Shown here: positions 23,293-23,880 of the stretch, piece by piece | How the letters are laid out: every line of letters starts with the position of its first letter | How positions within the stretch are numbered: position 1 is the first letter of the stretch | From: Kofleriaceae bacterium | Lineage (GTDB): Bacteria; Myxococcota_A; Polyangia; Haliangiales; Haliangiaceae | Direction of reading: 5' to 3' | Length of the DNA: 64,000 bases | Assembly: GCA_964203225.1 (NCBI GenBank) | Contig: CAXNMK010000002.1 | Span: 481,664-545,663, forward strand | Program-made: the position numbers and the translations under genes | The notes under the pieces: model-generated | Databases searched by the model: none | What the model was told of the DNA's origin: nothing | The model's input: only the letters and a program-made list of their open reading frames with translations

Positions 23293-23560
23293 GGTGGCGG
23301 TGGCGGTGGCGGTGGCGGTGGCGGTGGCGGTGGCGGTGGCGGTGGCGGTGGCGGTGGCGGTGGCGGTGGCGGTGGCGGTGGCGGTGGCGGTGGCGGTGGC
23401 GGTGGCGGTGGCGGTGGCGGTGGCGGTGGCGGTGGCGGTGGCGGTGGCGGTGGCGGTGGCGGTGGCGGTGGCGGTGGCGGTGGCGGTGGCGGTGGCGGTG
23501 GCGGTGGCGGTGGCGGTGGCGGTGGCGGTGGCGGTGGCGGTGGCGGTGGCGGTGGCGGTG
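23293..23560. repeat. perfect hexanucleotide microsatellite (GGTGGC) x ~45
   Basis: Read directly from the sequence. Lies ~35 nt after the HATPase stop. Confidence 0.95.
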
Positions 23561-23565
23561 CGCGG

Positions 23566-23880
23566 CGTGGCGGTGGCGGCCTCGGCTTCGGTGGCGGCCT
23601 GGCGGCTGTCGGTGGCGGCCTCGGCTTCGGTGGCGGCCTCGGCTTCGGTGGCGGCCTCGGCTTCGGTGGCGGCCTCGGCTTCGGTGGCGGCCTCGGCTTC
23701 GGTGGCGGCCTCGGCTTCGGTGGCGGCCTCGGCTTCGGTGGCGGCCTCGGCTTCGGTGGCGGCCTCGGCTTCGGTGGCGGCCTCGGCTTCGGTGGCGGCC
23801 TCGGCTTCGGTGGCGGCCTCGGCTTCGGTGGCGGCCTCGGCTTCGGTGGCGGCCTCGGCTTCGGTGGCGGTGGCGGTGGC
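23566..23880. repeat. 18-bp minisatellite (ggcggcctcggcttcggt) x ~16 followed by a short GGTGGC tail
   Basis: Read directly from the sequence. Contiguous with the hexamer tract. Confidence 0.95.

Follow-up and report, generated by a model that had tools for sequence, protein, structure and literature searches.

What is the long tandem repeat that lies between a histidine-kinase-like gene and a small four-helix-bundle gene in a genome of the Kofleriaceae, and why is it found there? The stretch of DNA analysed here, 64,000 nt of contig CAXNMK010000002.1 (Kofleriaceae bacterium, Myxococcota; assembly GCA_964203225.1; G+C content 72%), is referred to as the window, and coordinates refer to it unless another contig is named. 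The repeat, hereafter the left array, spans 607 nt (23293-23899) and precedes a gene for a four-helix-bundle protein of 104 aa (4HB gene, 24333-24647, plus strand) and a RAYT-like Y1 transposase gene (24817-25653, plus strand). A first-pass annotation had described a microsatellite which, together with a second array, brackets the RAYT-like gene with hypermutable DNA, a finding that we regard as ordinary and partly mis-attributed. The left array rather appears to be the fast-changing front end of a three-part unit of array, folded RNA leader and 4HB gene, which recurs in soil myxobacteria and is apparently undescribed.

Arrays, leaders and the four-helix-bundle gene family

An alignment-based scan of JGI metagenomes for the 4HB gene returned 80 related loci at 60-78% identity. 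Among the 41 loci having at least 400 nt of upstream sequence, 35 carry an array that ends 150-600 nt before the ATG of the 4HB gene (median 326 nt, interquartile range 298-346 nt), and 17 of the 80 contigs start inside an array. The share of sequence taken up by arrays is 20.7% in the 1 kb upstream of the gene and 4.7% in the 1 kb downstream, and it falls to 1.5% at distances greater than 1.5 kb from any 4HB gene. None of the 80 loci contains a RAYT gene.

Consensus units across the family have no sequence or period in common, the periods being 6, 7, 12, 13, 14, 19, 20 and so on up to 94 nt, of which 14 of 41 are multiples of 3. What is common to the arrays is a grammar, in which sub-units of the form CGG-Y-N(1-2)-K follow each other every 6-7 nt on the sense strand of the 4HB gene. 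Over about 40 unrelated-looking arrays the CGG triplets are spaced by 6 nt (376 intervals) or 7 nt (367 intervals), while control sequence is flat. CGG occurs at high density in 32 of 43 arrays, the base following it is a pyrimidine in about 93% of the distinct units, the last position is rarely C, and the polarity of the triplet is that of the gene's sense strand in nearly all arrays. The left array fits this grammar in both of its parts (CGGTGG, and CGGCCT-CGGCTT-CGGTGG), and so does the array of L001 (CGGTCG), a metagenome contig from another sample. The array is therefore a conserved, positioned and strand-specific component of the upstream region of the 4HB gene, and not of the RAYT-like gene.

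A second, convergent 4HB gene follows 10-450 nt downstream in at least 17 of the 80 loci. In the resolved cases (e.g., L032, L064, L088) the partner's leader and array are located on the outer side, giving the order array-leader-4HB> <4HB-leader-array. Convergent pairs were recorded in L024, L026, L028, L032, L034, L040, L041, L048, L061, L064, L084, L085, L088, L090, L096 and L097, and in L045 only a second, inverted leader was seen. No relatives of the 4HB gene were found in IMG/VR phage contigs with the patterns used.

The leader occupies 24083-24286 of the window (plus strand), where a helix H1, placed by eye, pairs 24083-24101 with 24267-24286 and encloses variable hairpins. A leader profile (nhmmer) matches 24104-24276 with E = 3e-20, and almost all 4HB genes are preceded by such a match at a distance of 35-55 nt. 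At the DNA level, the related loci are homologous to the window only over 24090-24647, the similarity ending with the stop codon of the 4HB gene. When 50 upstream regions are aligned (A2), conserved blocks appear together with two helices that show compensatory changes. In the long-range helix, the consensus CTCC-GCGGCG-GGG pairs with CCC-CGCCGC-GGAG, one pair being split into 22 U-A and 20 G-C; in the inner helix CGAACGCC pairs with GGCGTTCG, with pairs split 30 A-U to 13 G-C and 37 G-C to 9 A-U. Pairing is realised in 92.4% of the alignment cells, compared to 35-52% for slid controls, and none of 500 shuffles is as good; double changes, found in 12 pairs and 67 cells, supply the compensatory evidence. 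Most pairs of a third, short helix are G-U, which points to RNA of the sense strand. The leader helices are thus supported by covariation. Rfam has no match for the leader at E <= 1, either in window positions 23000-28000 or in four typical loci.

A Shine-Dalgarno-like GAAAGGA (24317-24323, plus strand), read directly from the sequence, lies 9 nt 5' of the ATG, and AGGAGAA is found at the homologous position in most related loci. In most leaders (A2 columns 36-49 and 280-284) the closing helix has CCUCCUCCCUCC as its 5' strand. This strand is similar to an anti-Shine-Dalgarno sequence and pairs with GGAGG, the Shine-Dalgarno sequence AGGAGAA lying about 35 nt further on; the subfamily of the window is without CCUCCUCCCUCC. 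This CU-rich strand could instead sequester the Shine-Dalgarno sequence and so act as a translational switch.

The 4HB protein itself is a member of PF05635 (41.7 bits, cut-off 33.8) and TIGR02436 (45.3 bits, cut-off 24), and is of the Avd or "S23p"-like type. Its AlphaFold model consists of four helices with a pLDDT of 96.5, and the best fold matches are Xcc0516 (2GSC) and BT_0352 (2RLD), each deposited with at least five chains. The next matches are bAvd and the Avd chains of the complex of reverse transcriptase (RT) and RNA from a diversity-generating retroelement (DGR), with a TM-score of about 0.75 and weak E-values, as are expected for short helical bundles. The protein is basic (pI 9.45) and probably pentameric. 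To our knowledge, TIGR02436 or "S23p" proteins are widespread and often present in multiple copies, and ever since their discovery in rRNA intervening sequences a role has been known for them only within DGRs.

Structure and strain-level variation of the left array

Tandem Repeats Finder and exact counts agree on the compound structure of hexamer and 18-mer repeats that was noted at first reading. The program reports a period of 6 with 53.3 copies at 23293-23618 and a period of 18 with 16.5 copies at 23571-23870. Exact counting gives, on the plus strand, a perfect (GGTGGC)x44.67 run of 268 nt (23293-23560; CGGTGG in the register of the family), an 11-nt junction CGCGGCGTGGC (23561-23571), and the 18-mer array of GGTGGCGGCCTCGGCTTC (23572-23870). 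No other run of period 6 in the window is both perfect and 40 nt or longer. The 18-mer array had been described as perfect, but a single GGTGGCGGCCTCGGCTTC unit is followed by a divergent unit of 21 nt (23590-23610) before the perfect period-18 run of 262 nt or 14.6 copies begins (23609-23870). Nor does the array end at 23880, as was first assumed, since a degenerate tail of GGTGGC and GACCTC units (23871-23899, plus strand) runs on to an approximate end at 23899. Over the whole left array, 92 of 97 intervals between successive CGG triplets measure 6 nt. The units are contiguous, and the 24-48-nt repeats with unique spacers that make up a CRISPR array are not present. A search confined to the window recovered no other copies of the units except for the differently built right-hand array discussed below.

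The G-rich strand of the left array folds into slipped hairpins (-19.2 kcal/mol per 72 nt, z = -5.8), whereas the predicted structure of the C-rich strand amounts to 0 kcal/mol, and each of 200 shuffles folds equally well or better. Canonical three-tetrad G-quadruplex motifs are absent from both the left and the right-hand array; two-tetrad quadruplexes are possible in (GGTGGC)n, the energy model not being calibrated for DNA. The tract is real and not an artefact of one assembly, because the 18-mer array and its junction recur in L002, an independent short-read metagenome contig that ends within that array, and at the corresponding position L001 ends in a different array; exact copy numbers are beyond the reach of short reads. 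A further contig, L003, begins at the equivalent of 23924, just beyond the array.

Between near-identical strains the 4HB gene is constant, whereas array and leader vary. L001 is 100% identical to the window over 24274-25989 (1716 nt comprising the 4HB gene, the RAYT-like gene, intergenic DNA and the start of the right-hand array), with zero synonymous changes. Over 23896-24273 the two differ by 38 substitutions and by deletions of 13 nt and 1 nt, and the L001 array consists of (GGTCGC)14 preceded by 34-nt units. The identity boundary is sharp, with about 10% divergence directly upstream of 24274. It suggests either that the gene block was recently transferred or converted, or that hypervariability is limited to array, spacer and leader. 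The spacer preceding the leader (23900-24082, plus strand), with a strain-level hot spot at about 23911-24028, holds 24 of the 38 substitutions and both deletions. L002 differs from the window only at 23947, 23952 and 23957, within 11 nt of the spacer, and at one position at the contig end. Among the 80 related loci the spacer is not conserved.

The same pattern is found elsewhere in the family. L036 has 5 and L037 at least 10.5 GCGGCT units next to 565 nt of leader and gene that are 100% identical, and differences at the distal array end distinguish L053, L069 and L072. The hypervariability between strains that the first-pass annotation expected is therefore borne out by both L001 and the pair L036/L037. 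In L102 and L103, two metagenome-assembled genomes (MAGs) of Kofleriaceae sharing the same locus, 98 nt of the leader's internal hairpins (4818-4915 in both) have accumulated 21 substitutions, some of which preserve pairing (compensatory), whereas the 4HB gene has 0 and the 4 kb upstream hardly any. The 21 substitutions involve all four bases, and adenine-specific mutagenesis as in DGRs was not seen; gene conversion between paralogous modules or local hypermutation could be responsible.

Codon statistics and strain comparison lead us to regard the tract as non-coding and the open reading frames (ORFs) across it as artefacts; very likely the tract is the non-coding component of the module. The opposite view, that it is a protein-coding repeat, would have to rely on the minus-strand ORF 23104-23979 with its (AT)n(EAEAAT)n product or on a Pro-rich ORF at 22494-24317. 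The AT frame has an ATG at 23979 and a GC3 of 0.93, compared to 0.91-0.97 in real genes of the window. Gene callers predicted minus-strand "genes" over the array in L001 and L002, and in L001 a stretch RGRQADGNRAT is retained via synonymous changes. Coding repeats do exist in this genome and therefore need distinguishing from non-coding arrays: the tandem repeats at 7408-7662 and 58197-58379 lie inside apparently real minus-strand genes (ORFs of 768 and 316 aa) as short Thr/Ala/Gly-rich linkers, in detail Gly/Ser/Ala-rich and Thr/Ala-rich.

Against the coding view, the VA(+) and AT(-) frames share their third positions and both have a GC3 of 0.93, but their GC2 is 0.66 and 0.83, respectively, compared to about 0.52 in real genes. 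Each 18-mer contributes one rare codon to these frames (GCT, GAA), and genome-rare codons occur in every repeat frame (GGT 6 versus GGC 98, GAA 3 versus GAG 74, CCA 4 versus CCG 67), with GAA or CCA recurring in each unit. The minus-strand ORFs would extend antisense into the histidine-kinase-like gene, by 155 nt in the AT frame and by about 765 nt in the Pro frame. In L001 the array region contains stops in all six frames; the N-terminus of the ORF is frame-shifted by the 14 nt of deletions, and the ORF stops inside the array. The 38 substitutions between the window and L001 are distributed 15/13/10 by position modulo 3 and hence without codon periodicity, no Pfam match was obtained, and homologous arrays have periods of 7, 13, 14, 19 and 20. 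No single conserved open frame combining codon-position bias with host-like codons is found. The six-frame stops, the lack of periodicity and the recurrent rare codons support the earlier suspicion that the long ORFs are artefactual. The argument then used, a unit length divisible by 3, carries no weight, as only 14 of 41 related arrays have such units. The Gly frame indeed lacks a start codon, but it does not have the best GC3 as stated: it reaches 0.49 in the hexamer and 0.66 overall, versus 0.93 for VA(+) and AT(-).

Turnover, possible function and alternative explanations

We consider the whole best explained by a non-coding array belonging to a conserved array-leader-4HB module, which turns over by slippage and acts in cis, and assign this explanation a probability of roughly 0.6. 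The order of the module is the (CGG-Y-N1-2-K)n array, a short variable spacer, the leader of about 200 nt, a ribosome-binding site and the TIGR02436 gene, all just past the stop codon of a co-oriented host gene. The sequence and copy number of the units would turn over rapidly as strands mispair by slippage and variant units are amplified anew. Such slippage-driven turnover is likely and would account for the two perfect blocks in the window and for the different array in a strain with identical 4HB and RAYT genes. The array would be retained because it acts in cis on its module: KCGGY sites spaced by 6-7 nt on the sense strand may provide a multivalent platform for an oligomeric protein that reads it in the form of a leader transcript or of DNA. 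An obvious candidate for this reader is the 4HB protein, which is basic and probably pentameric, and the length of the array would tune 4HB expression. The protein-binding platform is a tentative proposal of fairly low probability.

Several observations weigh against this explanation. The 80 loci are short metagenome contigs including near-duplicates, and their counts are not fully independent. Six of 41 modules have no array, at least three of which (L043, L044, L054) also have a 5'-truncated leader. The module of the window is itself atypical, with a spacer of 183 nt versus a median of 73 nt, a leader scoring 70 bits versus about 170 for typical copies, and 2 of 7 pairs mismatched in helix H2, as read by hand from A2. 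The right-hand array demonstrates that large G-rich arrays can arise here without leader or 4HB gene. The common grammar, finally, could have been inherited from an ancestral array and maintained by slippage alone, without function.

The last point is the core of a neutral explanation, in which a slippage-prone, CGG-rich tract was present in the ancestral 4HB module and has been re-expanding ever since as a self-perpetuating minisatellite without function. The perfect blocks imply a very recent expansion, unit sequences vary from strain to strain without constraint, slipped hairpins form on the G-rich strand, and an orphan, leaderless array lies 2 kb away, all of which would be expected of such a tract. 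Bacterial genomes, however, usually delete neutral repeats, and 85% of the modules keep an array on a fixed strand and at a fixed distance, with the narrow interquartile range given above. Moreover, the CGG-Y...K grammar and its 6-7-nt spacing persist though the units share nothing, and arrays are enriched about 14-fold over background. We therefore think that neutrality is unlikely, if well worth considering.

The preferred explanation can be extended to a bolder one, in which array, leader and 4HB gene constitute a self-contained ribonucleoprotein element of a new kind that is independent of an RT. A pentameric Avd-like protein would bind the KCGGY tract and the RNA with its hypervariable hairpins, and tract and hairpins would be actively diversified or exchanged, giving each copy an identity; the element would spread by insertion past host stop codons, often as convergent pairs. 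This extension is speculative and rather doubtful. If true, the identity of the copies could serve in mobile-element immunity, self/non-self discrimination or defence.

The location of the left array provides insight into how such modules are placed. The histidine-kinase-like gene ends at 23258 (plus strand) and is separated from a 260-aa gene (27891-28673, minus strand) by 23259-27890. In L014, a Myxococcales MAG, the two genes are convergent with stop codons about 10 nt apart (8663-8673). In L013, the kinase-like protein is 95% identical and its gene is followed by a different, unannotated minus-strand gene without an array (7087-7396), and in the contig carrying P0004 it is followed by a DUF915 gene. 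The gap is a variable site with four contents, namely nothing, the DUF915 gene, the unannotated gene and the 4.6-kb segment of the window, and since relatives have this site empty or otherwise filled, 23259-27890 is an insertion specific to the strain. The segment contains the 4HB gene, the Y1 transposase-like gene and, preceding the 260-aa gene, a 115-aa ORF on the minus strand for which there is no NCBIfam or PADLOC match.

The left array forms the outer edge of this segment, 35 nt past the stop codon of the kinase-like gene. Among loci with upstream flank, the array likewise starts 0-50 nt past the stop of a co-oriented, unrelated gene in L022, L051, L055, L056, L082 and L102/L103, the preceding gene being AlkB-like oxygenase (L082), AAA-kinase-like (L102/L103) or an unannotated coding-like frame (L022, L051, L055, L056). 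The gap is wider, 112-134 nt, in L041 (Ser/Thr kinase) and L025 (ferredoxin). Neither sigma-70 promoters nor intrinsic terminators were found in window positions 23100-28000 or in L082 3900-5400, the scan being uninformative for other sigma factors. The absence of a detectable promoter or terminator between host gene and array is compatible with read-through transcription.

Such placement would also suit an array that marks, or arises at, the terminus of a mobile element, by integration past host stop codons with reiterated 6-7-bp target duplications or footprints, or by stuttering of a polymerase or RT. The position at the outer edge of an inserted segment, the recurrence after unrelated co-oriented genes, the relatives with empty or differently filled sites and the frequent convergent pairs with arrays at both outer ends agree with this idea. 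The sub-units of 6-7 nt are also within the usual size of transposon target-site duplications. By contrast, no transposase, integrase or RT is consistently adjacent, and RAYT is absent from all 80 loci. A templating of the units by their own leader was considered and rejected, the longest common substring on either strand being 8.08 nt with the own leader and 8.10 nt with others. Forty-five identical units cannot be independent footprints, and no clean pair of filled and empty sites was obtained for the 4HB unit alone. An origin at a mobile terminus is improbable.

Still less probable is a strand-specific transcription insulator, in which the antisense (GCCACC)n, being C-rich, G-poor, unstructured and similar to a Rho-loading site, stops outgoing transcription and admits G-rich read-through in the sense direction. 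The unstructured C-rich strand, the failure to find intrinsic terminators and the conserved orientation relative to the module, convergent pairs included, would favour it. Several arrays of the family, however, have little or negative GC skew despite their CGG/CCG asymmetry (L022 -0.10, L023 -0.24, L095 -0.25), and the conserved feature is therefore the CGGY motif and not the C-richness of the antisense strand.

In the framing of the first-pass annotation, the arrays would belong to the RAYT-like Y1 transposase, as substrates or by-products comparable to repetitive extragenic palindromes (REP) and their mosaic forms (BIME). The gene matches PF01797 (29.7 bits, cut-off 23) and remains below the NCBIfam REP_Tyr_transpos cut-off (31 versus 80). 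It is indeed physically flanked by two arrays, the second of which (right-hand array, 25858-27320, plus strand; 1.46 kb, 89% G+C) lies directly 3' of it and was called by Tandem Repeats Finder as an 18-mer GGCGACGGGCGCGGGTGC (CGGCGA-CGGGCG-CGGGTG). At the distant RAYT locus L005, a GGAAGC/GGTCGC hexamer array is found 650 nt upstream. The bracketing thus stands as a description, but the association of arrays with RAYT does not. Seven contigs (L015-L021; five loci, some from the same samples) with RAYT paralogues of 80-91% identity have neither arrays nor a 4HB gene, nine distant loci of about 45% identity, from a RAYT scan of the reference genomes' contigs, have no consistent arrays, and the 80 loci with a 4HB gene have no RAYT. 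Furthermore, the units are direct head-to-tail repeats and lack the palindromes of REP, BIME or REPIN elements, the G-rich strand forming only slipped mismatch hairpins and the C-rich strand none. The RAYT-like gene is a neighbour outside the array module, and it is very improbable that the arrays are its substrates or by-products.

The right-hand array has expanded locally and separately from the left one, follows another unit grammar and has no leader. Its units are CGGG-rich and break the CGGY rule, and no remnant of a leader or 4HB gene was found beside it, even at E <= 100. In the paralogous locus L016, the equivalents of 25668 and 27462 are only 18 nt apart, from which it follows that the array was inserted or expanded locally. 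It differs between L001 and the window beyond 25989. An inverted-repeat relation of the spacer (23912-23951 and 24134-24184) to the right-hand array was discarded, the best match of 27/35 being within dinucleotide shuffles (mean 25.2, maximum 27).

The weakest alternative, that the tract encodes a protein, is largely refuted already by the frames and codons described above and is hardly credible.

Known systems and further repeats of the window

The left array resembles bacterial variable-number tandem repeats and contingency loci in its perfect tandem blocks, in the polymorphism of copies and units between near-identical strains (L036/L037, window/L001) and in the slippage-prone structure of one strand. 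Contingency tracts are located in an ORF or in the spacer of a core promoter. The array here is outside any ORF and any -35/-10 region, ending about 330-430 nt 5' of the start codon; in the window it lies between the kinase-like stop codon and 433 nt 5' of the 4HB ATG, where no sigma-70-like promoter was found. It also differs in recurring with a gene family, in combining unrelated units with a common sub-unit grammar, and in its 607 nt, which is far above typical tracts.

The closest analogy for the proposed mode of action, and a functional one only, can be drawn to the (G/U)AG triplets of the Bacillus trp leader and to HutP-type repeats, in which copies of a short conserved core, separated by short spacers of fixed length but non-conserved sequence, lie in the leader of a regulated gene. 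The triplets are read by TRAP, a ring-shaped oligomer. TRAP sites comprise 9-11 repeats versus 10-100 here, and the protein fold is unrelated. Type III toxin-antitoxin systems (ToxIN, CptIN, TenpIN) likewise have an array of direct repeats 5' of a small protein gene on the same strand. The ToxI units, however, are 34-45 nt long, structured and of fixed length, and are followed by a terminator and by the endoribonuclease ToxN/AbiQ, whereas units here are of low complexity and 6-94 nt long (6 and 18 nt in the window), a separate leader of 200 nt intervenes, and the protein is a four-helix bundle of PF05635/TIGR02436; neither a terminator nor a PADLOC match was found.

Closer in protein fold is the DGR accessory protein Avd, known with its RNA from the Bordetella phage complex bRT-Avd-RNA (PDB 8UBB/8UB7, 4DWL). 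The likeness comprises the fold (TM about 0.75), a small basic protein, a gene beside a structured RNA and local hypervariability. Unlike in DGRs, there is no RT among the genes of the inserted segment, to which the scan was confined, and the RNA lies upstream of the gene and not downstream. The L102/L103 substitutions do not follow the adenine pattern of template and variable repeats, for pairs of which no search was made. The same protein family also includes the "S23p" elements in intervening sequences of 23S rRNA (e.g., in Coxiella, PMC4990558) and the pentameric Xcc0516 (2GSC) and BT_0352 (2RLD). The intervening sequences are comparable in that the gene acts like a small insert, found at a site or missing from it, and that no cellular function is known for it. 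They differ in being located inside rRNA helices, with the ORF enclosed by a processing stem, while the gene here lies downstream of protein-coding genes, outside the closing helix of the leader, and is accompanied by a tandem array.

No description of a repeat grammar and covarying leader together with an Avd-like gene lacking an RT was found in Rfam or in the searchable literature on RAYT and tandem repeats, PF05635/TIGR02436 and myxobacterial minisatellites. Taken separately, hypervariable tandem repeats and structured leaders are familiar, and their combination with an Avd-like gene would be the new part. The leader and the grammar-defined repeat provide two concrete candidate nucleic-acid partners for one TIGR02436 subfamily, and the module exemplifies a localised bacterial hypervariability in which array and leader hairpins change beside an identical gene. 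In practical terms, such arrays break short-read assemblies, as is evident from the 17 related contigs starting inside one, and yield false gene calls like those of L001 and L002, which is relevant to the annotation of high-GC myxobacterial genomes.

Further observations concern the RAYT copies and other repeats. A conserved region containing the promoter-like element TTGAAC-N17-TAGGAT lies upstream of the RAYT paralogues (L016:100-150, L019:1-45, L015; window 24761-24816). In the paralogue contigs L016, L019 and L015, a palindrome GTCAGGGCTGTCCGAAGGCTGACGTGTCAGCG is located upstream of RAYT, and in the window the 4HB gene replaces that part of the upstream region. Tracts of (GGGCAA)n or (CCCTTG)n with about 5.5 copies lie near several distant RAYT copies in the MAG "Deltaproteobacteria bacterium EC_MBin.16" (L005:7875-7907, L006:7225-7257, L008:65-97, L010:532-564 and 841-873, L011:10027-10059, L012:1787-1845). 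Elsewhere in the window, neighbouring proteins match MAGs labelled Kofleriaceae or Myxococcales, and perfect or near-perfect tandem duplications are present at 2077-2266 (82 nt x 2.3) and 6102-6255 (84 nt x 1.8). Both duplications share an inverted, G+C-rich core of 33 nt with a GGGGC...GCCCC palindrome, and look like a small dispersed repeat family of the REP type or of the type of miniature inverted-repeat transposable elements.

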